Source of the DNA: a virus
IMG/VR virus record: IMGVR_UViG_3300045988_117710
Strand: one strand, 5' to 3'
DNA length: 64,000 bases
Position 1 is the stretch's first letter. Each line of letters opens with the position of its first letter. Made by a program: the position numbers and the translations under genes. A model generated the notes under the pieces. That model made no database searches, had not been told where the DNA came from, and saw nothing but the letters and a program-made list of their open reading frames with translations. This document shows, one piece after another, positions 13,449-33,431 of the stretch.

Positions 13449-13458
13449 GGTGGTTTTT

Positions 13459-14634
13459 ATGAAAGAGTTTGTTATTAAGAATGAACTTATGATGTTCATT
13501 GAGGAGCATGAGGATTGGAAGGTTCTATTAGCTTCTGATCCTTATAATCTAATTATTAAGGAAGATGAGGATTTTCCTAATGTTTATTTATTCAAGTATA
13601 ATATGTTAGAGTCTGATATGTATCAGAAGATTTCCCAAGAAGCGAGAGGTTTAATAGTTGAGGTTTCTGAAGTAGCTGGTAGACGTGTGACTAAGATGTT
13701 AGCACATTCTTTTGATAAGTTCTTTAACTATACTGAACCTCAAGGTGTTATGGTTCTAGAGAATTTCAATTGGGATAATTATAGTTTCCAAGAGAAGAGA
13801 GATGGATCTCTTATGAGATTGTGGTTCTATAAAGATAAGTGGGTTGTATCTAGTTCTGGTACTATTGATGCTCATAAAGCCAATATTCAGATTCCTAGTG
13901 TAGGTTATAATTCATTTGGTGATATGTTTGATGCTATTATTAAGAAGTATGATGTTGATTTTGATTCTTTAGATAAGGGGATAACTTATTCATTTGAGAT
14001 GACTTCACCAGACAATAAGATAGTAGTTGATTATGACTCTGATGAGCTTACTCTTATTGGTATGAGAGTTAACAAGTTGAATATGGAGCTTGATCCTATA
14101 TCTTTTAATCCATTTAAGGATATTAAGGTTGCTGAGAGATTTGAGTTTACTTCTCTTGATGATGCTTTATCTATTATTAATAATAGAACGAATTTTGAGG
14201 GCTTGGTTTTGGTTGATTCTAGTTTCAATCGTGTTAAGATTAAGACTGAGGAGTATTTAGCTTTAGCAAAGATGTCTGACATGGCAAGTTCTGATAGAGG
14301 TATCTTAAGGATGATTCTAGCTGGTACTATAGATGATGTTGCAAATCGATTACCACATTTACAACCACGAATTGATATCGTTAAGGGTTTTGTGGAATCA
14401 GAAATTACTAATATTAAGCAGTTGATTAGTACTGTTGATTTTACTCAAGATAGAAAGACAATTGCTCTATCAGTTAAGGATAGTCCTTATGCTAGGTTTG
14501 TATTTCCATTGATTTCTAATCCTGATCAGGATGTTATTGGAGCTTATTTTGTGTCTGATAACTTGGAGAAGATTTACAAATCTTATAAGGAAAGGTTCAA
14601 TTTAAGTGAAGAAACTGAAGAAGAAGTCATATAA
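13459..14634 (+). CDS. RNA ligase, T4 Rnl1-like (391 aa)
   Basis: GAGGTGG RBS; motif I QEKRDGSLM (KxDG nucleotidyl-Lys); upstream blocks EARGLIVE / FDKFFNYTE parallel T4 Rnl1 ECRGIMFE / MEKFFNLNE; size matches Rnl1. Confidence 0.7.
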   Translation: MKEFVIKNELMMFIEEHEDWKVLLASDPYNLIIKEDEDFPNVYLFKYNMLESDMYQKISQEARGLIVEVSEVAGRRVTKMLAHSFDKFFNYTEPQGVMVLENFNWDNYSFQEKRDGSLMRLWFYKDKWVVSSSGTIDAHKANIQIPSVGYNSFGDMFDAIIKKYDVDFDSLDKGITYSFEMTSPDNKIVVDYDSDELTLIGMRVNKLNMELDPISFNPFKDIKVAERFEFTSLDDALSIINNRTNFEGLVLVDSSFNRVKIKTEEYLALAKMSDMASSDRGILRMILAGTIDDVANRLPHLQPRIDIVKGFVESEITNIKQLISTVDFTQDRKTIALSVKDSPYARFVFPLISNPDQDVIGAYFVSDNLEKIYKSYKERFNLSEETEEEVI

Positions 14635-17266: not shown

Positions 17267-18934
17267 ATGGTTAATGTTTTCTTTATTAGTGATTTACATC
17301 TTAATCATGGCAATATTATTGATTATTGTGATCGTCAGTTTAATAGTATTCAGGAGATGAATGATACTATTGTTAGGAATTGGAATAGTGTTGTAGGTCC
17401 AGATGATATAGTTTATTTTCTAGGTGATTTTGCTTTAGGTAGAGATGTAGATAAGGTTTATGAGGAGTATTCGAAGCTTCTGAATGGCACTATCTATTTC
17501 TTAAGAGGAAATCATGATAAGTCTAGATCTGTTGTATCTAGGTATTTTAATTTAATCGATACAGGTACGACTGTTTCTTATAATGATTCTCATTTCATTC
17601 TTTCCCATCATCCTTTATATGATTCAGAGATTCCTAAGGGATATGTTAATCTTCATGGTCATATTCACAATAACAAGTTGAGTAGGGTTTATGATTCTGG
17701 ATGTCATTTTAATGTTTCTGCTGATGTTACTGATTTCACACCATATTTCGTAAAGAATATTATAGATGATATTTCCTCTGGTTCTTTAGTTCCAAAGAGA
17801 ACTGGGGTTGATAGAGTTAGGAAGGATGATGGTAGTATGAGAAAGTTAGCTACAGTGCAAACTATTTTAAATGTTGAACCTATACCTGATGCTGATGCAA
17901 TTGAGGTTGTTACAGTTAAGGGTTGGAAGGTTGTTGTAAAGAAGGGTGAGTATCAAGTTGGTGATAAGGTAGTTTATTTCGAAATTGATTCACTTATTCC
18001 AAGAAGTTCAATAACAGAGTTTTTGATGGAAGATGAGTATATGTTGTCTGCTAGATTAAGAACTAGAAAATTAAGAGGTCAAGTATCTCAAGGTTTAGTT
18101 ATTTCTTTAGAAGATTCTCTTGTTATGGCTGAAGAGTTAAATGGTGCTGTTGAGTTATTTGATACTGATGATGGTACAGATGTTTCTGATTTACTTCATG
18201 TTGAGAAGTATGAACCACCTGTTACTTATGGTAACGAGGGTAGATGTGTTGCTTGGCCATTTACATTGACTAAAACTGATGAAGAGAGAATTCAAAATAT
18301 TCCTGAAGTTATTGATAAGTTGATCGAGAATGGAACTCATTTATGTATTTCAGTTAAGTTAGATGGTACTTCTATGACTGTAGTACATCAACCAGATGGT
18401 ATTCATGTAGCTGGTAGAAACAATGATTTTGATAAGACAGATGATTTTGCTTTCAATAATAAGTATTGGTCTACAGCTCGAAGATATGGTGTTACAGATG
18501 CTTTAGAAGAAGCCCATATAAATAATCCAGACAAATACTTTGCTGTTCAAGGTGAGTTAGTTGGTCCTGGTATTCAAGGTAATAAGATGAATTTATCAGA
18601 TTTGAATTATTATATCTTTAACTTATTTGTTTCTGAAGATGAATGCAGAACTTGGAAGAAGTTAGGTTATGAAGAATTAGTTCAGTTCTGTATTGATTAT
18701 GATCTTACTCATGTTCCTTATATTTATTCAGATTTCGAATTGAAGGCACATGGTTTAGTAGATGTTGATAGTATTCTTAAGTTTGCGGAAGGTACTTATA
18801 GAGATAATGCCGAGGGTTATTTCCCAAATGCTAAAGCCAATCAACAAAGAGAGGGGTTAGTGTTTAGAACTCTTGATCATCAATTCTCTTTTAAGGTTGT
18901 TAATAATATCTTCTTACTTAAGGGAGGAGAATAA
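17267..18934 (+). CDS. fusion of calcineurin-type metallophosphoesterase (N) and polynucleotide ligase-like nucleotidyltransferase (C); candidate RNA-repair healing/sealing enzyme (555 aa)
   Basis: AAGGAGG RBS; N: FISDLHLNHG / LGDFALGRD / RGNHD phosphoesterase motifs; C: SVKLDGTSM (motif I KxDG), VQGELVG (III), REGLVFR (IV). Confidence 0.7.
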   Translation: MVNVFFISDLHLNHGNIIDYCDRQFNSIQEMNDTIVRNWNSVVGPDDIVYFLGDFALGRDVDKVYEEYSKLLNGTIYFLRGNHDKSRSVVSRYFNLIDTGTTVSYNDSHFILSHHPLYDSEIPKGYVNLHGHIHNNKLSRVYDSGCHFNVSADVTDFTPYFVKNIIDDISSGSLVPKRTGVDRVRKDDGSMRKLATVQTILNVEPIPDADAIEVVTVKGWKVVVKKGEYQVGDKVVYFEIDSLIPRSSITEFLMEDEYMLSARLRTRKLRGQVSQGLVISLEDSLVMAEELNGAVELFDTDDGTDVSDLLHVEKYEPPVTYGNEGRCVAWPFTLTKTDEERIQNIPEVIDKLIENGTHLCISVKLDGTSMTVVHQPDGIHVAGRNNDFDKTDDFAFNNKYWSTARRYGVTDALEEAHINNPDKYFAVQGELVGPGIQGNKMNLSDLNYYIFNLFVSEDECRTWKKLGYEELVQFCIDYDLTHVPYIYSDFELKAHGLVDVDSILKFAEGTYRDNAEGYFPNAKANQQREGLVFRTLDHQFSFKVVNNIFLLKGGE

Positions 18935-18935
18935 T

Positions 18936-19730
18936 ATGAAGTATTTATTTCACTTCGCTATGATGAAGGAGTGTCCTACTGAGTTTATTAAGTTACCAGA
19001 AGGTGTACATGATGATTTAAGTGGAGATGATATTGTAGGTTTATTTGATACCATTTATCCTAATATTAAGTTTTGGGTTTCTGGTGTTGGATGCAATAAT
19101 GTCCTTTATCCTGATTATGAAGTGGTTAATTATCTTAAGACTTGTGATTATGTTTATAGTTTTGGTTTATCTGGTTCTATTAATGATAATCTTAAAGTTG
19201 GAGATTTGGTTAATGTTCATAGTGTTAATAATCTAGATGTTAAGATGCCTGGGTATGGATTAGGTTGTACTGATGATTTTGATGCAGATTGTTTAGGTTG
19301 TTCAAAGTCTAATCTTACAGCTTTATCTGATTTTAATACTAGGGTTATCTGTTATACTTCTAATCGATTTGTTACGAAGGAGTATTTAGATTTCTTATTT
19401 GGTGATAATTCTGATGATAATTTAGATGATTTCTATGATGATGCTTTTAATGTAGCATTTGATGAGAATGTGATTACTTCTTTAGCTTTAGGTTTTATTG
19501 ATGAACCAAAGAAAGATTGTATAGTTTGTGAGATGGAACTATTCTATCTTAAGAAGTTTGTTGATATTATTAATAAGTCTTGTCCTGTATGTGCTTATAA
19601 GTTAGTTTCTGATATAGTATGTAAACCTGATAATTATGAAGAGTATGAAGGTTCTTTACAAACTCTATTATCTAGTTTACATTTTGCTGTAGGAGCTGCT
19701 GTTAAGGAGTTAGGTTCAGATGGAGAATAG
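18936..19730 (+). CDS. PNP/UDP-family nucleosidase-like protein (MTA/SAH nucleosidase-like), 264 aa
   Basis: GGGAGGAG RBS before ATG 18936; FGLSGSINDNLKVGDLVNVHSV resembles MTAN TGSAGGL..LKVGDVVI; C-terminal EMELF resembles MTAN EMES; assignment tentative. Confidence 0.45.
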   Translation: MKYLFHFAMMKECPTEFIKLPEGVHDDLSGDDIVGLFDTIYPNIKFWVSGVGCNNVLYPDYEVVNYLKTCDYVYSFGLSGSINDNLKVGDLVNVHSVNNLDVKMPGYGLGCTDDFDADCLGCSKSNLTALSDFNTRVICYTSNRFVTKEYLDFLFGDNSDDNLDDFYDDAFNVAFDENVITSLALGFIDEPKKDCIVCEMELFYLKKFVDIINKSCPVCAYKLVSDIVCKPDNYEEYEGSLQTLLSSLHFAVGAAVKELGSDGE

Positions 19731-19731
19731 T

Positions 19732-20220
19732 ATGAAGGTTCAGTTAGCAGATATTACTTTTGATTCATGTGTAGATGGTCCTGGGTTAAGAACTGTTGTG
19801 TGGTTGTCTGGGTGTTCTCATAGATGTCCAGAGTGTCATAATGAACGTTTACAGGATTTCCATTATGGTTATTCCATGGATGTTAATGAGTTAGTTGATA
19901 CTTTATCTAGTTCGAAGAGGATAACTTTCTCTGGTGGTGATCCATTGTTTCAAGTGAATGCTTTAGATGAGATTATTGGTTCTCTTGATCCAGAGACAGA
20001 CATTTGGATTTATACTGGTTTTACTTTAGATAAAGCCAAGGAGATTCTGATGGATAAGCCAAATCTTAGAGAGTCTGAATTTACTATTAAGTGTGGTAAG
20101 TTTGATAAGAGTCTTAAGGATCCTAGTTGTAAGTTTAGGGGTTCTAGTAATCAAAGGATTTATCATTATATTAATGGTATCTTTACTGATATCTCTGACA
20201 AGATTGATAATAGAAAATAA
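19732..20220 (+). CDS. NrdG-like radical-SAM activating enzyme (anaerobic RNR / glycyl-radical activase family), about 162 aa
   Basis: SCVDGPGLRTVVWLSGCSHRCPECHN matches the NrdG GCxxxCxxCxN signature and size. Confidence 0.65.
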   Translation: MKVQLADITFDSCVDGPGLRTVVWLSGCSHRCPECHNERLQDFHYGYSMDVNELVDTLSSSKRITFSGGDPLFQVNALDEIIGSLDPETDIWIYTGFTLDKAKEILMDKPNLRESEFTIKCGKFDKSLKDPSCKFRGSSNQRIYHYINGIFTDISDKIDNRK

Positions 20221-20279: not shown

Positions 20280-20528
20280 ATGTATTCTCATAATTATAAA
20301 GGTTTACCTTATAAGCAAAGTGTTAAGCGATTTGAGAAGGATTATCGTATTAGATATTGTTTGTATGGTAAGTATTCCAAATGGAGAACTGCTTCTGGGA
20401 AGAAGATTCGAGTTAAGGATTTAGATTATCACCATTTAATTAATATTGTTAATTATTTTGGGAATACAAAGATTCGAAATGATTATCCATTTGTTTGGTA
20501 TAGATATGTGAAAGAGGTGGTATTGTGA
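20280..20528 (+). CDS. hypothetical basic protein (82 aa)
   Basis: AGAGGTGA RBS. Confidence 0.5.
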   Translation: MYSHNYKGLPYKQSVKRFEKDYRIRYCLYGKYSKWRTASGKKIRVKDLDYHHLINIVNYFGNTKIRNDYPFVWYRYVKEVVL

Positions 20529-21565
20529 AGAAGTTCACAGCAACAGTTTTAATGGGTTATCCTGGTTCTGGTAAGACTAGAGCAAGTTCTTATAAGCATT
20601 TAAGAACTAATGATGCTTTATATCTATCTTCTGATGATTTAAGAGTAGAGATGTTTGGTTTCAGAGATCAGGAGCATAATAAGGAGTTATTCGAAGAGTT
20701 ATATAAGAGAGCAATCAATTATTCTGATAAGGGAGATGTTTTAATTGATTCTACAGCTCTTACTAGAAAAGATAGATTGAGGGTTATTGCAAAGCTTGGT
20801 AAGTACTTCAATATGAGATTAGTAGTAGTTGTCAGACCTATTTGGGAGATTGTGGAGGAGAATCAAATCAGAAAGGTTTCTAAACCTGAAGAGTATATTC
20901 CTGAACCAATCTTTAAACAGATTCTTGGTAGATTTCAATTACCTACTTATGATGAGGGTTGGGATGAGATTAGTTTTTGTTTCAATTCTTCTATTGAAGA
21001 ACATAATGATCCTAATCTATTATTAAAATGTTTTTATGATTTAGATAAGGTTGAAGATATTGCACATGATAATCCACATCATCCAGAGTCAATCAAGGAA
21101 CATGTTAATTATGTTTTAGGTAAGGTTAAGGAAGAGACATCAAGTTTTGTATTAGAGTCTATTGCTTATTATCATGATTTAGGTAAATTTTATGTTATTC
21201 AGTATAATGAAGAGAAAGGATATTCTCAATGTATTGGTCATGCAGCTGTTTCAGCTTATATCTATTTGACAGATTTCTTGATTAGGGCTGTTTTAGATTC
21301 TATTGAGAAAGATGACTTTACTAATCCTTTTAGTAATTTAGAGTTTCTTTTAATTTATTATGGAGTGTTCTATCATGATTATCCTTATTCATTTACTGAT
21401 TTTGAAGATATGGTTAGTTCTTTAAGTAAACCTAGTAAACCATTGATTCATTTATTTAAAAATCTTAATGATGGTTTAGTTGGTATTTCTATGAGAGAGT
21501 TTACAAGAATGTTAATAGATTTTAATTGTTATGATAGAATGAGGGAAGGTGATTCAGATGAATGA
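20525..21565 (+). CDS. P-loop polynucleotide-kinase-like domain fused to HD phosphohydrolase domain (346 aa)
   Basis: Walker A MGYPGSGKT; HD motifs HHPESIKEHV ... YYHDLGK; GTG start with GAGGTGG RBS. Confidence 0.65.
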   Translation: MKKFTATVLMGYPGSGKTRASSYKHLRTNDALYLSSDDLRVEMFGFRDQEHNKELFEELYKRAINYSDKGDVLIDSTALTRKDRLRVIAKLGKYFNMRLVVVVRPIWEIVEENQIRKVSKPEEYIPEPIFKQILGRFQLPTYDEGWDEISFCFNSSIEEHNDPNLLLKCFYDLDKVEDIAHDNPHHPESIKEHVNYVLGKVKEETSSFVLESIAYYHDLGKFYVIQYNEEKGYSQCIGHAAVSAYIYLTDFLIRAVLDSIEKDDFTNPFSNLEFLLIYYGVFYHDYPYSFTDFEDMVSSLSKPSKPLIHLFKNLNDGLVGISMREFTRMLIDFNCYDRMREGDSDE

Positions 21566-23004: not shown

Positions 23005-24984
23005 ATGTTAGATTATAATAGATTAGATATGGCAACCCTAAGATTGTTTAAGGGGTTATATGTTGATGAACCAAATACTGGTTCTAATATTTCAAGAGAT
23101 GAGGTAGTTAAGTTAGCTCTTAATGGGTTAATCTTTAATACTACTGTTCATTCTGATACAGCTGTTGATATAGCAATTAAACTTTATGGAAATAATCCAT
23201 ATAAGTTATCAAATACTTTTCATAAGGATTGGACTACTGTGGAGAATATTACTCCTGAAGAACATTATTTACAAACTTTTATTAGTTATATAACTACTTA
23301 TGGATATGATTCTTTAGGAATTCCTTATGATGAAAATCATTACATTATTCCTGATGAGATTATTCCTATTCCAGAGAATGTAGTTCCATTTAATTTTACT
23401 GTTATTAGTTCATTGAATTATGTAACATTATTAAATAGAGTTCATGCATTAGTTTCATCTGGTGTAGCTTTATCTCAACAACAAGTTGATGATGTATTGG
23501 TTATTATTAACTATTTACAGTTACCTATTGACTTCTCTATGGTTAAGAATAAAGAAGTTCGTTGTGTTCTTTGGTTAGGTATTACTGGTGATAAACCTTA
23601 TATCAATGTTGATGAATTCTTAAGAGTTTTAGTTTATACTACTCTACATCAAACATTATTAGTTCGTTCTTATAGAGATTATAAGGCAATTAGATTTGCA
23701 ATGAATTATTCTGATGAGACTAGAAGAAAAGTTGCTAAACTATTAGAAACTTATCAAAGACAATTTGGTATTGAGAATTTAGCAGGTTCTTTCTTACGTA
23801 ATAAGATGTTATTCCTAGCTTTCAAATGTGATGAGACTAAGGTTCTTATTAACAAGTTAAGAAGAGTTGCTGATAAGTATCATAGACCAATTAGTAATGC
23901 TAAATTAACTATGGATGATATCCTTCGTGCTGCGGAGAATAAGAATATATTCCAATTAGTTAAGTATTATAACTATTGTTTATCTATAATTAATCCTACT
24001 GAAGATAGAGTTTATGCTATTAGAAATGGTAAGAATTATTTAGCTAGTAATCCTAATTACAATAATTCTTCAGTTGCTAGAGATTTAGTTGTTCCACATT
24101 ATATGGATTTATCTAGAACTATTGTTACTAAGTTAGAAGAGTTACTTTCTAATTTGAAAGATAAGACATTTATTATACCTGAATATGTTGATTATAAAGT
24201 TCCATCATCTCTTAAGAGATTAGCATCTGGTGTTCCAGAAGGAACTATGATTAAGTTTAAGGAAGGAGATCCATTTGTTGTTGGTGTTTACTGGACAAAT
24301 CTTGAAGGTGACGATAATGAGAAGAACAGAGTGGATTTAGATCTTCATGCTAATTCAGTTAATAAGAGTATTGGATGGAATACTTCATTCAGAAATGACG
24401 AAGTTCTTTATTCTGGTGATATAGTAGATGCACCTATTAGTAAGGGTGGTGCTTCTGAAGCATTGATGTTTAGAAAAGTTACTGATCCTTATTTAGTTAC
24501 TTTAAATTCTTATAATCAAGCTGGTGTTATTTCTTATAAGTTTATCTTTGATGTTGAGGATGGGTTCAGAGCTTCTCATTCAACAGGATGGGATAGAAGA
24601 ACTCCAAATGGTTATATCTTTACACCAAATGCTAGAGTTCTTAATGCGAAGATTAAGAAAGATGGTTCTCAAAATACTTTAGGTTTAGTTATGAATGATA
24701 GATTCTATTTTATGAATTCATCATTATTCTCTGGTCATGTTACTGTTAAAAGTGATTTACTTAAGAGAGCTATTAAGTATTATGAAGAATCTCAAGCAAG
24801 AGAGTTAAGATTAAGAAGTTTACTAACATTAGTTGGTGCTAGAGTGTTTGATTCTTTTGAAGATTTAAAAGCTTGGGAAGATTTCCATGAAGTTGTTGTG
24901 GATACTAATACTGTAGTTGATTTATCTTTAGAAGCAATTACTGAAGATACATTTGTTCAGTTATTTACAATAGATGCTGAGTAG
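23005..24984 (+). CDS. hypothetical large protein (659 aa)
   Basis: AAAGGTGG RBS; no recognisable motifs. Confidence 0.6.
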   Translation: MLDYNRLDMATLRLFKGLYVDEPNTGSNISRDEVVKLALNGLIFNTTVHSDTAVDIAIKLYGNNPYKLSNTFHKDWTTVENITPEEHYLQTFISYITTYGYDSLGIPYDENHYIIPDEIIPIPENVVPFNFTVISSLNYVTLLNRVHALVSSGVALSQQQVDDVLVIINYLQLPIDFSMVKNKEVRCVLWLGITGDKPYINVDEFLRVLVYTTLHQTLLVRSYRDYKAIRFAMNYSDETRRKVAKLLETYQRQFGIENLAGSFLRNKMLFLAFKCDETKVLINKLRRVADKYHRPISNAKLTMDDILRAAENKNIFQLVKYYNYCLSIINPTEDRVYAIRNGKNYLASNPNYNNSSVARDLVVPHYMDLSRTIVTKLEELLSNLKDKTFIIPEYVDYKVPSSLKRLASGVPEGTMIKFKEGDPFVVGVYWTNLEGDDNEKNRVDLDLHANSVNKSIGWNTSFRNDEVLYSGDIVDAPISKGGASEALMFRKVTDPYLVTLNSYNQAGVISYKFIFDVEDGFRASHSTGWDRRTPNGYIFTPNARVLNAKIKKDGSQNTLGLVMNDRFYFMNSSLFSGHVTVKSDLLKRAIKYYEESQARELRLRSLLTLVGARVFDSFEDLKAWEDFHEVVVDTNTVVDLSLEAITEDTFVQLFTIDAE

Positions 24985-25629: not shown

Positions 25630-26517
25630 ATGGTTTATGTAAATGGAAATGCAACTGTTTCTATTGATGACAATGGGAGAAGAGTTGTTGAGTGGCCAGA
25701 TGGTGAGGATTTAAGATTAGAGTATCCTTTAAGTATTGATTTAAATATTTCTAATAGATGTTCTAATGGCTGTACTTATTGTTATGCTGGTAATACTCCA
25801 ACTGGTAGGGTTGCAGATTTCTTGACAATGAATTACTTGGATGATATGTTAGCTGGTAGTGAGATTGCTATCAATATTCAATATCCTTTACCAGAGAATT
25901 TTGAGTTCTGGTTAGAGAAGATGAAGAAGCAAGGTGTAATTGTTAATGCTACTATTAATCAATTAGATTTTGAAAGAGATGAAGCTATTATTGATCAGGT
26001 AGCTGATTGGCAAGATAGAGGTTTATTACATGGTATAGGTATTTCATATCGAAGTAATAATTACATTTATGATAAGATAGGGAAACTTAAGAATGTTGTT
26101 ATTCATATGATTGTTGGTATTCATACTCTTGAAGAGATTAGAGCAATGTTATTGAATTATAATGTTTTAGTTCTAGGTTATAAGTTCAAAGAGCGTGGAA
26201 TTACTTATAGTCAAATGAATCAGTTTGTTTCTTCTAGTATTGAGATGTTAAAGCTTCGTGCTGACGAACTTCTTAAGAGTGTTGGTCGTGGGGTTTTATG
26301 CTTTGATACTAAGGCGGTTGAACAGCTTGAACTTAAGAATCATTTATCTGAAGAAGATTGGAATACTTATTATCAAGGTGATGAGGGAACAATTTCATTT
26401 TACATAGATGGTGTCAAAGGTACTTTTAATACTGATTCTCATACTAATGATGAACCAATTCCTATTGATGGAATGTGTATTAAAGATATGTTTAGAGTAA
26501 TAAGAGAGAAGGTGTAA
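25630..26517 (+). CDS. radical SAM enzyme (295 aa)
   Basis: NISNRCSNGCTYCYAG = CxxxCxxC [4Fe-4S]/SAM motif; no SPASM-type C-terminal Cys cluster. Confidence 0.7.
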   Translation: MVYVNGNATVSIDDNGRRVVEWPDGEDLRLEYPLSIDLNISNRCSNGCTYCYAGNTPTGRVADFLTMNYLDDMLAGSEIAINIQYPLPENFEFWLEKMKKQGVIVNATINQLDFERDEAIIDQVADWQDRGLLHGIGISYRSNNYIYDKIGKLKNVVIHMIVGIHTLEEIRAMLLNYNVLVLGYKFKERGITYSQMNQFVSSSIEMLKLRADELLKSVGRGVLCFDTKAVEQLELKNHLSEEDWNTYYQGDEGTISFYIDGVKGTFNTDSHTNDEPIPIDGMCIKDMFRVIREKV

Positions 26518-26519
26518 TA

Positions 26520-26996
26520 ATGAAGGTAGTTCGTGAAGGTGTATTTGAAACTAATTCAAGTAGTACTCATAGTTTAGTTTGTGCAAGAAGTATGAGTCCT
26601 GAAGAGTATGTTCCAAATAATTCAACTATTAAAGTTAAGTTTATTGATACTGATGATTTAACTTCTTTACGTACTTTAGCAGAGAAAGTTTCTTATTTAG
26701 TTTCTCATATTGTTAATGGTTATAAGTATAATGCAGCTACTTATGAGAATTTGATAGAAGATGTTAAGAATTCATGGTCTTTTAAGAAATTAAATTACTA
26801 TGTTGAAGAGCATTATAATAAAAGTATAGTATTTCCTGAATCCTATAAGGGAGATTTAGAGGAAATAGTTAATATCAATCATCAATTGATTGAGAGTGAT
26901 TTCGATTCTTTATGTAAAGATATTGTTAGTGAAGATAGAGATTACTTAGGTGAGATTTTATCACCAGATAAAAGTATTGATTTTGGAAGGGATTGA
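26520..26996 (+). CDS. GVFETNSSS-family paralogue A (158 aa)
   Basis: AGAAGGTG RBS; N-terminus MKVVREGVFETNSSSTHSLV shared with next two genes. Confidence 0.65.
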   Translation: MKVVREGVFETNSSSTHSLVCARSMSPEEYVPNNSTIKVKFIDTDDLTSLRTLAEKVSYLVSHIVNGYKYNAATYENLIEDVKNSWSFKKLNYYVEEHYNKSIVFPESYKGDLEEIVNINHQLIESDFDSLCKDIVSEDRDYLGEILSPDKSIDFGRD

Positions 26997-27001
26997 TTTA
27001 T

Positions 27002-27610
27002 TTGAAAATTATTCGTGATGGTGTGTTTGAAACTAATTCAAGTAGTTCACATAGTTTAGTCATTAAGAAGAGAACTAAACCTAGGGTTAATGATATTCCT
27101 AGAGGTGTGGAATCATTTCTAGTTAATGAGTATGGTGTTTGTTGTTGCTCTGATGAGTCTGTTGATATTAATCGTCATTATACTCAAGTAGCGAAGTTAT
27201 CTTTTCTACTTAATATGTTAGCAACTGTTTGTAACTATTGTCAAGATTGGGATTTAATGTTTAAAGATTATTCTTATGATGACTATAGATCAGCAATCAA
27301 TAAATACGAGTATATGACTCAGTTCTGGGAAGAGATGATTAATTCACCATATTTTACAATTCTTCAAGATGTTGTATTTGAAGAAACAGGAACTCATATT
27401 GAGTTTGCTCGTCCTGATTCAGATGATATTCCATTCTATGATTGTGTTTATACTGATGATGGTGATGTGGATGAGTTATTAGGTTTTGATATCAAGAACT
27501 TTGATGCTGAATCTTATAAGAAGAGACTTAAAGAAATTCTATTTGATGAGGATATGGTAATTATTGATGCAAGTATTCCTTATGGAATAGAAGGTGATTG
27601 GGATGTCTAA
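27002..27610 (+). CDS. GVFETNSSS-family paralogue B (about 202 aa)
   Basis: GGAAGGGA RBS, TTG start; MKIIRDGVFETNSSSSHSLV; divergent Cys-rich C-terminus. Confidence 0.6.
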   Translation: MKIIRDGVFETNSSSSHSLVIKKRTKPRVNDIPRGVESFLVNEYGVCCCSDESVDINRHYTQVAKLSFLLNMLATVCNYCQDWDLMFKDYSYDDYRSAINKYEYMTQFWEEMINSPYFTILQDVVFEETGTHIEFARPDSDDIPFYDCVYTDDGDVDELLGFDIKNFDAESYKKRLKEILFDEDMVIIDASIPYGIEGDWDV

Positions 27611-28046
27611 TAAGAAGATTCGTGAAGGTGTATTTGAAACTAATTCGAGTTCTAGTAATTCTTTATCAATTGAGTCTTGGAGAGATGATTTAGTGGTTCC
27701 AGAAAGATTATCTTATGTTGAGCTTGAGATGGGAAGAACTTTTGAACACAAGGGTTATGATGAAAGATTTACTGTTTTGTTAAGTCTTTGTGATTCTGCT
27801 GATGATGTGTTTAAGCTTTGTTACAAGTGTTATAAGTTTGGTGTTAAGGAGATAGTTTTACCTAATCCTGATAACTATACTTGTTATGGCAATTCTGATT
27901 ATATTCATGTTTCTGCAGGTGAGATAGATGATTCTGAATATGAACTTCGTGAATGTTTGAAAGATGATGAACTTCTTAAGGGTTGGTTGTTTAATCCAGA
28001 TTCTGAAGTATCTGGTCAAGATGATAATTATTTATGTGATTGGTAG
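27603..28046 (+). CDS. GVFETNSSS-family paralogue C (about 147 aa)
   Basis: GAAGGTGA RBS; MSNKKIREGVFETNSSSSNSLS. Confidence 0.6.
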   Translation: MSNKKIREGVFETNSSSSNSLSIESWRDDLVVPERLSYVELEMGRTFEHKGYDERFTVLLSLCDSADDVFKLCYKCYKFGVKEIVLPNPDNYTCYGNSDYIHVSAGEIDDSEYELRECLKDDELLKGWLFNPDSEVSGQDDNYLCDW

Positions 28047-28053
28047 TGATTAT

Positions 28054-28302
28054 ATGAAGGATTTTAAATTGAAGTGGTACAATTTTCTAGGATTCTTTCG
28101 TTCTGGTTTAGCAAAAGATGTTTTATTAGGATATAGGAAGAGTTCTGGTGAACCTGTTAAGTGTCCTCATTGTAAGTGCAAGAAGTTGGAGACTTATGAG
28201 ACTTTCAGACATGATCAGGGTTTTGTTGAAGAATATTGGGTTAGATGTAGTAAGTGTAAAGAACACGTTGGTACTTGGGCTTACGGATCTTGGATGTTAT
28301 AA
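28054..28302 (+). CDS. zinc-ribbon protein (82 aa)
   Basis: CPHCKCKK...CSKCKEH; track start 27964 is likely over-extended. Confidence 0.45.
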   Translation: MKDFKLKWYNFLGFFRSGLAKDVLLGYRKSSGEPVKCPHCKCKKLETYETFRHDQGFVEEYWVRCSKCKEHVGTWAYGSWML

Positions 28303-28325
28303 GATGCTATAAAGCATCTTTTTAT
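28303..28325 (+). terminator. rho-independent terminator
   Basis: agatgctataaagcatct + TTTTTATTT. Confidence 0.6.
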
Positions 28326-28335
28326 TTCGTATAAT
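28325..28335 (+). promoter_or_regulatory. TTTCGTATAAT promoter-like motif (+ TTTTAGAAGGAG RBS 2 nt downstream)
   Basis: Exact family consensus. Confidence 0.5.
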
Positions 28336-28356: not shown

Positions 28357-28842
28357 ATGTATACGAATACTGAGATGTATCAACACGCGAAGTTAGAATT
28401 AGATAAGTTGTTAGAACTTGAGAGAAAGGATAATCTTAAACGTTCTGTAGAAGAGTTAGAGAACGAAGTTGCAATGTTTGATGGCAAGACTCCACAAGAG
28501 TTTATGAATGATGCTATTCTTAATGTTATTGCTTCTATCAATTCAGAAATTAATTCTTATAATTCTATGGATTATTTACTTAATACTGTTTATGATTTAG
28601 TTAAGTTTAGAAATCTTACACCACTTACTTTAGGAGATGAAGAGTGGGTTCATGTTTTAGATGATCCTGATAGAGGAAGTGTTTATCAGAATATTAGAAA
28701 CTTTGCAGTGTTTAAAGATGACAAGAATGGTGTATATCATTCTGATGGACAAGAGATGCTTAATATTGCTTGTGGTAAGTATCCAGAGTCTGGTGAAGTA
28801 ATGGAAGTTTATCAAGATAATGAAGGAGAGTCTAATGAGTAG
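28357..28842 (+). CDS. hypothetical protein (161 aa)
   Basis: GAAGGAG RBS. Confidence 0.6.
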   Translation: MYTNTEMYQHAKLELDKLLELERKDNLKRSVEELENEVAMFDGKTPQEFMNDAILNVIASINSEINSYNSMDYLLNTVYDLVKFRNLTPLTLGDEEWVHVLDDPDRGSVYQNIRNFAVFKDDKNGVYHSDGQEMLNIACGKYPESGEVMEVYQDNEGESNE

Positions 28843-31770: not shown

Positions 31771-32082
31771 ATGAGAAAGTTAATGAGCAATGAGGATTGT
31801 ACATACTTATATGATAGGGAGAGTAAGTTATTATATGTTTCTTTATCATTTGAGGATCTTACTAATTTAGATACTTGTGAGGATTATTTTGTGGTTGATG
31901 TTTATAACTATACTGATGGTCCTGATGCTATTTCTGAATTAGTACATTTTTGTAAGGGTTTGGATAGTGTTGAAGATAGATATGAGTCTATTAGAAGTGT
32001 GTATGGTTCTGAAGTTGATGAATCCACTGGGCAAGAGATTGTTGGTGGAAATATTTGTATAGAGGATGTGGATTTTATATGA
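31771..32082 (+). CDS. hypothetical acidic protein (103 aa)
   Basis: AGAGAGGTGA RBS. Confidence 0.55.
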   Translation: MRKLMSNEDCTYLYDRESKLLYVSLSFEDLTNLDTCEDYFVVDVYNYTDGPDAISELVHFCKGLDSVEDRYESIRSVYGSEVDESTGQEIVGGNICIEDVDFI

Positions 32083-33431
32083 TGACTATTGGTCAAAAGT
32101 TAGAAGATCTTATTAAAGCTTGTCAGGATTATCAGGTTACTCCTATTCCTACAAAGACTAATAAGAAGGATCAGTTTTTATCACCATTTGATGTTCCTGG
32201 TAAGACTGTTTCCAAAGATGATTGTGTTAAAGTTTTACAACAATATTTTATCAACAAGTATAAGTCTGAAGGTAAGGATACTTCTAGTGTAGAGTTTCTT
32301 ATCAATAATGATTTTTCACCTATGCTTGCTGCTAAACTGTCTGATTGTAAGATGACTCAAGAGGATGTTTTCAACTTAGATGAGAATAATTATATAGCTC
32401 AAACGAAGTTAGATGGTAATAGAATTCTTATTTATAAGAGTGCAAACTCTGATGAGTTACATTTCTATAGTAGAAACTTATCAGTTGTTGATTATCTTCC
32501 TATTGATTATAAGGATAACATTTATACTAATGTAGATTTTAGTAAACTTAAAGGTATTTCATTTATGGTGGATTGTGAGTTAGTGGTTTCTCAAGTTCCT
32601 GATAATGTTATTTTGGAATCTTATGGTTTACCTGTTGATACTACTCAACTTAATTTAACTACAGCTTTATTAAGTACTGAATCTGGTACTGAAGAGTTTC
32701 AAAAGTTATATCCACTTAAGTTCTGGTTATTTGATGTTATTATGAAGGATGGTGTAAGTTATTTAGATGAACCTTTATATAAACGTCAAATTGTTGTTAA
32801 TGAGATGAATGCTTTATTAGTTGAAGCTGGATTACTTATAGAGCAACCACTTAATAATAGAAAGCTTGGTTTATCTATTCGTGACTTTCATAAGAAGATG
32901 TTAATGAATAATGAAGAGGGTTCTATTGTTAAGAGATTGGATGCAACTTATTGTACTAATGGTACTCGTTCTCATAAGGCATGGATTAAACTTAAGAGAA
33001 CTGCTACTGAGTCTTTAGTTGAACAAGGTCTTGGTGATACTATTGATGCATTTATTACTGGGTATGAGAATAAGAAGGATTCAAGCTACAATTCTTGGAG
33101 AGTTGGTTCTATTGAATTGAGTGTTTATTTAACTGATGATAATGATAACTATATTTGTGATGAGAATGGTTATCCTATTAGTAAGGTTATTGCTTATGTA
33201 GGTGGTCTTACTGATGAAGATGCGAAGAATCTATCAATACCGGATGTTAACAATCCTGGTATGTGTTGTTTAGATCCTATGTCATATGGTCGTGTTTATG
33301 AAGTTACTGGACAAGATATTAGTCCTAAATCCAATACTTTAATGCATGCTAAGATTATTAGAGAACGTTTCGATAAACAATCTTCTGATTGTAAGTTGAG
33401 AAAATCTTTTATCGAGAGTCAAGTTATGTAG
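32079..33431 (+). CDS. ATP-dependent DNA ligase (about 450 aa)
   Basis: Motif I AQTKLDGNRILIY (KxDGxR); size and downstream OB-like region consistent; ATGATGA overlap with previous stop. Confidence 0.7.
   Translation: MMTIGQKLEDLIKACQDYQVTPIPTKTNKKDQFLSPFDVPGKTVSKDDCVKVLQQYFINKYKSEGKDTSSVEFLINNDFSPMLAAKLSDCKMTQEDVFNLDENNYIAQTKLDGNRILIYKSANSDELHFYSRNLSVVDYLPIDYKDNIYTNVDFSKLKGISFMVDCELVVSQVPDNVILESYGLPVDTTQLNLTTALLSTESGTEEFQKLYPLKFWLFDVIMKDGVSYLDEPLYKRQIVVNEMNALLVEAGLLIEQPLNNRKLGLSIRDFHKKMLMNNEEGSIVKRLDATYCTNGTRSHKAWIKLKRTATESLVEQGLGDTIDAFITGYENKKDSSYNSWRVGSIELSVYLTDDNDNYICDENGYPISKVIAYVGGLTDEDAKNLSIPDVNNPGMCCLDPMSYGRVYEVTGQDISPKSNTLMHAKIIRERFDKQSSDCKLRKSFIESQVM

Follow-up and report, generated by a model that had tools for sequence, protein, structure and literature searches.

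Why would a phage encode a radical enzyme directly ahead of three proteins that begin alike and then differ? We examined this question at positions 25630-28302 of a 64,000-nucleotide stretch of viral DNA (IMG/VR record IMGVR_UViG_3300045988_117710; the whole stretch is called the window below), where a radical S-adenosylmethionine (rSAM) gene is followed by three tandem paralogues, A, B and C, that share a short N-terminal tail. The original prediction, made from the letters of the DNA, had noticed this arrangement and likened it to leader recognition. Our analysis revealed that the unit belongs to a widespread, self-contained type of phage module made of a minimal rSAM enzyme and one to ten acidic tailed proteins, and it established that one enzyme and a portable, invariant and, in structure models, flexible peptide are dedicated partners. 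The reading that we favor, at a probability of roughly 0.45, is that the tail is the docking site and probably also the modification site of the rSAM enzyme, which would mature a diversifying set of acidic phage effectors.

The rSAM gene and its tailed partners

All genes of the unit lie on the plus strand. The rSAM gene (25630-26517), which has the ribosome-binding site GAGGTG, encodes a stand-alone protein of 295 residues with a single [4Fe-4S] motif, C44-x3-C48-x2-C51, whose codons were placed from the translation at 25759-25782. Reading of the junctions revealed that the ATG of paralogue A (26520-26996; 158 residues, isoelectric point (pI) 4.8) lies 2 nt past the rSAM stop codon and that the ribosome-binding site of A is inside the rSAM gene. 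For paralogue B (27002-27610; 202 residues, pI 4.3, ribosome-binding site GGAAGGG) the mechanically called open reading frame (ORF) starts at TTG 26993; the start consistent with the family is the TTG at 27002, 5 nt past the stop codon of A, and the relative P0007 has the same start called. Paralogue C (27603-28046; ATG start, 147 residues, pI 4.3) overlaps B by 8 nt, and its sequence type is shared by the relative P0021. The consecutive, tightly packed genes that had been described are confirmed by these junctions, and the description of B and C as Cys-rich was also correct, each having six Cys.

The three N-termini are MKVVREGVFETNSSSTHSL in A, MKIIRDGVFETNSSSSHSL in B and MSNKKIREGVFETNSSSSNSL in C. 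As had been noted, their first ~20 residues are near-identical, with the shared pattern R-x-G-V-F-E-T-N-S-S-S-x-H/N, and the tails are encoded at 26520-26585 in A (MKVVREGVFETNSSSTHSLVCA), 27002-27067 in B (MKIIRDGVFETNSSSSHSLVIK) and 27603-27674 in C (MSNKKIREGVFETNSSSSNSLSIE). A six-frame scan of the window for ETNSSS in ORFs, with at most one mismatch, returned just these three N-termini. The proposed invariant string GVFETNSSS(S/T)HSL does not hold for C, which reads SSSSNSL; its codon for residue 17 (27651-27653) specifies Asn where 99% of the family have His. This Asn variant is stable in its lineage and is also found in the relatives of C (P0021, a cluster of 26 sequences). Past residue 24 the bodies of A, B and C have no significant mutual BLASTP similarity (best E = 0.14), which agrees with the earlier statement that they diverge completely. 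That statement went slightly too far for A, which aligns to the family profile over its full length and keeps F41, Y59, H121 and D158, each at least 90% conserved in alignment A2.

The co-occurrence of tail and enzyme was assessed from both sides. Loci were selected by the motif (80 IMG/VR viral contigs and 75 GTDB genome loci), and an rSAM gene was sought within 6 kb; separately, 80 viral loci were selected by the rSAM gene only, out of at least 480 relatives found with a narrow rSAM alignment. A family rSAM was present in 64/80 motif-selected viral loci, including 33 of the 41 with at least 5 kb on both flanks, and in 65/75 GTDB loci, including 30/30 with full flanks. From the other side, tailed genes were found at 77 of the 80 rSAM-selected viral loci, all on the strand of the rSAM gene, with a median gap of 16 nt and a gap of at most 100 nt in 86%. 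Co-occurrence is thus almost obligatory in both directions. Between 1 and 10 tailed proteins are present, most often 2. Tailed genes stand upstream of the rSAM gene in 165 loci and only downstream of it in 31, which places the window in the minority. Moreover, two independent fusions join the partners in opposite orders: a 453-residue rSAM-tail-body protein in which the tail is internal (L007/L008, 5104-6465), and a 482-residue tail-body-rSAM protein (P0196 in L239, 6001-7449). Since the tailed proteins match no characterized family (see below), and since motif and enzyme co-occur almost obligatorily and are fused both ways, the link to the rSAM enzyme survives the objections that the original prediction had raised against itself.

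The module spans phages of cyanobacteria, Bacteroidota and Firmicutes and occurs in hundreds of unrelated phages. In Lak-B7 four tailed paralogues come after the rSAM gene; the genetic code of Lak phages is an alternative one, but the ORFs that we used are uninterrupted with table 11. In the Microcystis phage Ma-LMM01 the tailed gp130 lies two genes upstream of the rSAM gene, gp128. The GTDB loci come mostly from gut or rumen metagenome-assembled genomes (MAGs) and may be prophages or mis-binned phage contigs; the locus of Eubacterium plexicaudatum ASF492 shares its gene arrangement with a viral contig of IMG/VR. Among the neighbors of the motif- and rSAM-selected loci we found no third universally present gene, and no conserved peptidase, transporter or exporter, head or secretion gene.

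Some loci carry one partner only. The tailed genes of L014 (6001-6495) and L047 (6001-6486) have no family rSAM within 6 kb and are flanked by genes for a CxxCxxCC protein, a Metallophos protein and a PAPS-reductase-like protein and by a NifS-like gene. L229 (7983-9259) is the sole clear full-flank rSAM gene without a tailed gene, and it is followed by the gene of an 89-residue Zn-ribbon protein with a strongly acidic C-terminus.

The enzyme itself matched PHROG 16999 ("Fe-S oxidoreductase") at 8e-29. Its match to Pfam Radical_SAM (PF04055) had an E-value of 1.3e-3 and 19.4 bits, below the gathering cut-off of 29.5, and a few homologues have a precomputed PF04055 match. A profile of the rSAM family matched the solved rSAM enzymes 7tol (5e-4), SuiB (5v1q; 6e-4) and SkfB (9e-3), in each case over the cluster- and SAM-binding segment only, approximately residues 25-134. 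Where rSAM enzymes usually have GGE, the alignment to 7tol and 5v1q shows (E)IAIN...P. Of the five Cys in the window protein, C44, C48 and C51 are invariant in 41 homologues and no further Cys is conserved. Because only three Cys are conserved in the family, the enzyme is taken to have a single cluster and neither a SPASM nor a twitch domain, in agreement with its earlier description as core-only. The rSAM assignment is made from the invariant CxxxCxxC, PHROG 16999 and the weak but consistent profile matches, with which the sub-threshold Pfam match accords. In the cluster segment, most of the nearest, albeit weak, sequence neighbors are maturases of peptides or proteins (WgkB, GggB, QhpD, XyeB, SkfB and SuiB). 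Library and profile searches of the module proteins returned no match to PqqD or to an RRE, the recognition element of systems for ribosomally synthesized and post-translationally modified peptides (RiPPs). Homologues of the window enzyme in Lak megaphages and Ma-LMM01 are ~32% identical to it. An intein interrupts the CxxxCxxC in L003 (3650-5662) and L061 (2314-2748 and 3969-4814), with the third cluster Cys as the +1 extein residue; under table 11 the L061 gene is split into two ORFs.

The invariant tail and the variable bodies

The tail consensus covers ~17 residues, M-K-x-[IV]-R-x-[GSN]-V-F-E-T-N-S-S-S-x-H, and is joined directly to the first strand of the body. Over 537 unique tails, the Arg at position -4 and F, E, T, N, S and S were 100% conserved and the third Ser and the His 99% conserved, an invariance that is partly ascertainment as the loci were found with an FETNSS pattern; Arg and His were in neither search pattern, and the third Ser was in the genome-scan pattern but not in the viral one. 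The Gly ahead of V-F-E is conserved in just 59% of tails, and most ORF calls place the Phe 8-9 residues past the start codon. In an index-free HMMER search, nearly all of the best 150 matches began at profile positions 1-5 and thus included the tail. At the invariant sites, 373 DNA versions used all six Ser codons and all six Arg codons. With full codon degeneracy at these residues, it is the peptide that is under selection.

An AlphaFold model of a canonical member, P0012, had a predicted local distance difference test score (pLDDT) of 89.9 and a predicted template-modeling score of 0.84. Residues 1-17 averaged ~51 and had no secondary structure; the fold begins at the tail His, and the low-confidence stretch is exactly the invariant tail. 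The model of window paralogue A gave the same pattern of an unstructured, low-confidence tail on a confident body. As modeled, the tail would be a flexible appendage, which fits a recognition or modification peptide. Its variable positions were more alike within genomes than between them (similarity 0.44 vs 0.35; permutation p <= 5e-4), even where the bodies were unrelated. This likeness fits adaptation to one shared partner; common descent also contributes. The E-T-N-S-S sequon of the tail was considered as a bacterial N-glycosylation-like site and dropped, no glycosyltransferase being linked to the module.

The tailed proteins form a large family. A profile built from eight members retrieved over 5,800 clusters (90% identity), all of them unnamed and devoid of Pfam domains, and an exhaustive HMMER scan gave 7,464 representatives at 50% identity with E <= 1e-3. 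Most come from gut and rumen phages, and members are also found in Lak megaphages and Ma-LMM01. Behind the tail, the bodies fall into at least 39 clusters unlinked by BLAST, in proteins of 100-450 residues. The canonical class of ~175 residues carries the motifs GEFGWE, GYxDH, TGNDN and a C-terminal YYKGN; a short class of ~127 residues ends in VAFGxYGYD; a Cys-rich class has 210-320 residues; and the types of window A and B are further classes. In L053/L054 (4628-5986) an insert of ~300 residues resembling a seven-bladed beta-propeller (Pfam Lactonase, 4e-24) sits between GEFGWE and GYIDH of an otherwise canonical body. Acidity is common to the family, with a median pI of 4.46 and 92% of tailed proteins below pI 5 vs 22% of neighboring background ORFs.

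As had been claimed, the paralogues fall outside any characterized family. A, B and C matched PHROG 28997 at ~1e-4, which like PHROG 16999 of the enzyme is functionally uncharacterized. Pfam, NCBIfam and PADLOC returned no meaningful match, whether queried with the tailed proteins or with ten different body types, and a sequence-profile search of the PDB with the tailed family was empty. Structure comparison against BFVD gave a family member as its sole significant match; a non-significant one (E = 0.68) was a 461-residue "Radical_SAM domain containing protein", possibly a fusion. Megablast of the region against phage records and tblastn with paralogue A alone found nothing. The family is visible only through the motif and profiles. 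No description of the module or the motif strings was found in the literature searched, itself an incomplete set, and the word "radical" is absent from a comparative-genomics review of conflict systems in jumbo phages.

Proposed docking and modification weighed against other roles

According to the favored reading, the rSAM enzyme would bind the tail in its active-site opening and use SAM and the [4Fe-4S] cluster for radical chemistry on one or more invariant tail residues, candidates being the Phe/Thr pair and the Ser triplet. Newly made tailed proteins would be matured by this chemistry. Their bodies, which duplication and even beta-propeller insertion have diversified, would go on to address different targets in the host; host takeover or counter-defense is the most plausible setting, as suggested by their acidity, their early- or accessory-region location and their neighbors. 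The substrate-first gene order, the scattered extra copies and the maturase-like neighbors lean toward a substrate role for the tailed proteins.

By analogy, the module works most like a RiPP system in which one maturase serves many precursors, or like an activase with its protein substrate. It nevertheless lacks the defining features of RiPP clusters, SPASM maturases, glycyl-radical pairs and pairs of a sulfatase with the anaerobic sulfatase-maturating enzyme (anSME). RiPP examples of one maturase with many precursors are the prochlorosin pair ProcM/ProcA and the NHLP/Nif11-leader precursors with their rSAM maturases. As in these systems, one enzyme gene adjoins several substrate-like genes, usually upstream of it, whose products have a conserved N-terminus and a hypervariable remainder. 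Unlike RiPP precursors, the phage partners are folded proteins of 100-450 residues (pLDDT ~90 in models). Unlike RiPP leaders, the tail is invariant and not merely similar, which would make it the likeliest site of reaction rather than a leader, and the module is without RRE, SPASM domain, conserved protease or exporter. The original comparison with leader recognition hence stands as far as a tag on variable bodies is linked to an rSAM enzyme, whereas its RiPP and anSME analogies fail.

Maturases with known substrates give a similar picture. SuiB (5v1q), SkfB (6efn), XyeB, QhpD, WgkB and GggB, whose cluster- and SAM-binding segments are weakly matched by the phage enzyme, act on ribosomal peptides or proteins. 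Unlike the SPASM maturases, the phage enzyme matches only across residues ~25-134 (E 5e-4 or worse), has a single cluster and carries neither a C-terminal Cys-rich domain nor an N-terminal RRE; identity with a SPASM or twitch maturase was rejected as just the three core-motif Cys are conserved. The glycyl-radical activases, known from PflA/PflB, NrdG/NrdD and GrcA, act on a partner with an RVxG-type loop. They are small single-cluster rSAM proteins that address a defined loop on a folded partner encoded next door, as the phage enzyme would. In the phages, however, the conserved peptide stands at the N-terminus, in place of an RVxG loop at the C-terminus, and one enzyme has many unrelated partners, and a glycyl-radical pair was rejected given that neither the tail logo nor the family alignments contain an invariant Gly. 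The anSME enzymes convert Ser or Cys to formylglycine in the target (C/S)-x-(P/A)-x-R and hold two auxiliary clusters in a SPASM domain. Here too an rSAM gene adjoins genes for full-length proteins with a short invariant Ser-containing motif, and anSME oxidizes a Ser side chain; an anSME/sulfatase pair was rejected as (C/S)xPxR is absent from the tail and the SPASM domain from the enzyme.

Several observations weigh against docking and modification. Invariance at 9/13 residues exceeds that of known leader or recognition peptides and fits an active-site or ligand-binding loop equally well. The rSAM enzyme is without the auxiliary clusters and the RRE of most peptide maturases, and ~15% of motif-selected loci (e.g. 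L014, L019 and L042) have no rSAM gene within 6 kb. The low AlphaFold confidence of the tail could partly reflect invariant columns without covariation signal, and the recurrent RNA-repair neighbors described below could point to a nucleic-acid substrate instead. In the window, translation is coupled so tightly that near-equimolar synthesis is suggested, as is more usual for subunits than for an enzyme and its substrate.

The main competitor, somewhat improbable but serious, is that the unmodified tail would dock into or complete the rSAM active site while the bodies recruit third-party substrates such as host proteins, tRNA or other RNA, much as F-box proteins feed one catalytic core. Fusions in both orientations are typical of subunits, start and stop codons overlap or adjoin in the window, and invariance on both faces of the peptide would suit a buried structural or ligand-binding element; the fusions, the translational coupling and this two-faced invariance lean toward such a model. 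Under this model the propeller insert would resemble a target-binding module, the many unrelated bodies would fit a set of specificity factors, and the frequent RNA-repair neighbors would be accommodated. We know of no rSAM enzyme that works in this manner, however. The acidic bodies are also poor candidates for binding RNA or DNA, and some tailed genes lie kilobases from the rSAM gene or have none within 6 kb. The present data do not separate adaptors from substrates.

A bolder proposal, which we regard as doubtful, is that the module is a new phage weapon, with the invariant F-E-T-N-S-S-S-x-H tail serving as a protein-borne cofactor or reactive warhead, or with the tails serving as plugs for targeting subunits. 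As a warhead, the tail might be converted to, for example, a cross-linked ring or an aldehyde and carried by acidic decoy proteins to different host targets. As plugs, the tails might join interchangeable targeting subunits to one radical enzyme that damages or rewrites host macromolecules. Either variant, if true, would be protein-level radical chemistry without a described viral counterpart. We see a real, if minor, chance that the module is categorically new. To our knowledge, rSAM enzymes acting on whole proteins are few (the glycyl-radical activases, anSME and RimO), and we know of none that serves a diversifying viral family. If the tail is modified, the module would represent a new post-translational modification, a new class of phage effectors and a portable tag of 17 residues for recognition; with the tails as adaptors, it would be a new architecture by which radical chemistry is directed. 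In both cases a large block of phage "dark matter" becomes open to test, and many phage rSAM genes labeled only "Fe-S oxidoreductase" are accounted for.

A further explanation, which we judge improbable, dispenses with direct contact between tail and rSAM enzyme: the enzyme and the tailed proteins would be consecutive enzymes acting on a shared small molecule or tRNA, with the E/N/S/H residues of the tail forming a catalytic or metal-binding loop. The polar motifs conserved in canonical members (GEFGWE, GYxDH, TGNDN and YYKGN) and the conservation of H17, H121 and D158 at 90% or more in alignment A2 are consistent with such a pathway, as are neighbors that include a PNK/HD enzyme, RNA ligase, Thg1, RlaP, NifS and PAPS-reductase-like genes. 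These body motifs are, however, missing from most body types, including the short and Cys-rich ones, and the pathway model is weakened because the only universal part is the tail, which is modeled as unstructured. It would also be unusual for an enzyme family to retain a single loop while losing the remainder of its fold, and up to ten divergent copies per genome are unlike a metabolic step.

Still less probable is that the tail is a sorting signal (for capsid targeting, degradation or secretion) read by something other than the rSAM enzyme, which would then be linked through regulation. This notion draws on the T4 internal proteins IPI-III and Alt, some of them anti-restriction effectors, whose N-terminal capsid-targeting sequence is recognized by the prohead scaffold and cleaved by the head protease. 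Like these, the tailed proteins are phage-encoded, tandem and fast-diversifying, hypervariable behind a common short peptide that is fixed at the extreme N-terminus. The invariant partner here, unlike in T4, is an rSAM enzyme, and no head genes are linked. The sorting model is weakened because phages of cyanobacteria, Bacteroidota and Firmicutes alike show a near-obligatory link to a directly adjoining rSAM gene and because fusions to the enzyme exist, one of them burying the tail inside the polypeptide; moreover, no head, protease or secretion gene is conserved nearby. Finally, that the shared 60 nt are a recombination or regulatory DNA repeat or a chance likeness is excluded, although the three tail-coding stretches of the window are 68-77% identical as DNA, by the use of every synonymous codon at invariant residues, both Ser codon families included, in the 373 DNA versions, and by a motif that is always in frame at the start of an ORF.

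Genomic surroundings

Downstream of paralogue C, the unit contains the zinc-ribbon ORF that had been noted before (28054-28302, plus strand; in-frame ATG, 82 residues, basic, pI 9.2). It matched PHROG 2993 at 9e-13 and had weak Pfam zinc-ribbon matches. Among all loci searched it was seen only in the window and in the near-identical relative L083, a 189-kb contig. The ORF is thus predicted to be co-transcribed with the unit but to lie outside the conserved system, and is present as described without being a component of the module. A terminator-like element on the plus strand (28301-28330) closes the unit, with a hairpin at 28301-28320 (8-bp stem, 4-nt loop) followed by TTTATTT.

The window has ~32% G+C, and every predicted gene of at least 150 residues is on the plus strand; the GC skew is uniformly positive, at 0.08-0.45. 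Genes of the tail, the baseplate and the tape-measure type are at 44-56 kb, and a DnaB-like helicase gene is at 57.5-59 kb. Because close relatives sit on contigs of ~170-197 kb, the phage is probably a large one of the myovirus type. MAG contigs with relatives ~50% identical to paralogue A came from goat and sheep gut samples.

The unit is situated in an accessory region, and those neighbors whose positions are given here are all on the plus strand. Upstream are genes for an Rnl1-like ligase (PHROG 562; 13450-14634), a fusion of Metallophos, PHA02142-OB and RNA-ligase domains (17267-18934) and a PNK-like AAA_33/KTI12 kinase (20525-21565). An NrdG/QueE-like activase (19720-20220; Pfam Fer4_12, 8e-29), 5.4 kb upstream, is a second, unrelated small protein of the radical-SAM type. 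An ORF of 659 residues (23005-24984) had only marginal Pfam and PHROG matches; like upstream ORFs of 120 and 63 residues it is lineage-specific, recurring only in L083. The first gene past the terminator encodes a homologue of Tad3, the Type I Thoeris inhibitor (28357-28842; Pfam PF25185, 2e-20), which suggests that the region is a counter-defense or accessory island. Further downstream are an ATP-dependent DNA/RNA ligase (32055-33431), a weak HSP20-like match and a Metallophos protein. Together with the upstream ligase, fusion and kinase genes, the ATP-dependent ligase makes up a set of RNA-repair style.

Elsewhere, recurrent neighbors of the module are PNK/HD, RNA ligase, Thg1, RlaP, NifS-like, PAPS-reductase-like and replication genes. 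At least one RNA-repair gene was near the module in 17/63 rSAM lineages defined at 60% identity, a raw count without a background rate; the association is recurrent and not obligatory. NifS-like genes were near the module in ~30 loci and PAPS-reductase-like genes in ~14. In Ma-LMM01, the deposited label "histidyl tRNA synthetase" of gp131 is without Pfam support, and gp129 (L001, 4622-4960), between the tailed gene and the rSAM gene, encodes a phage ProQ-C-like protein. Near the Lak-B7 module, the opposite (minus) strand carries a PARG gene of the microbial type (L002, 10133-10813).

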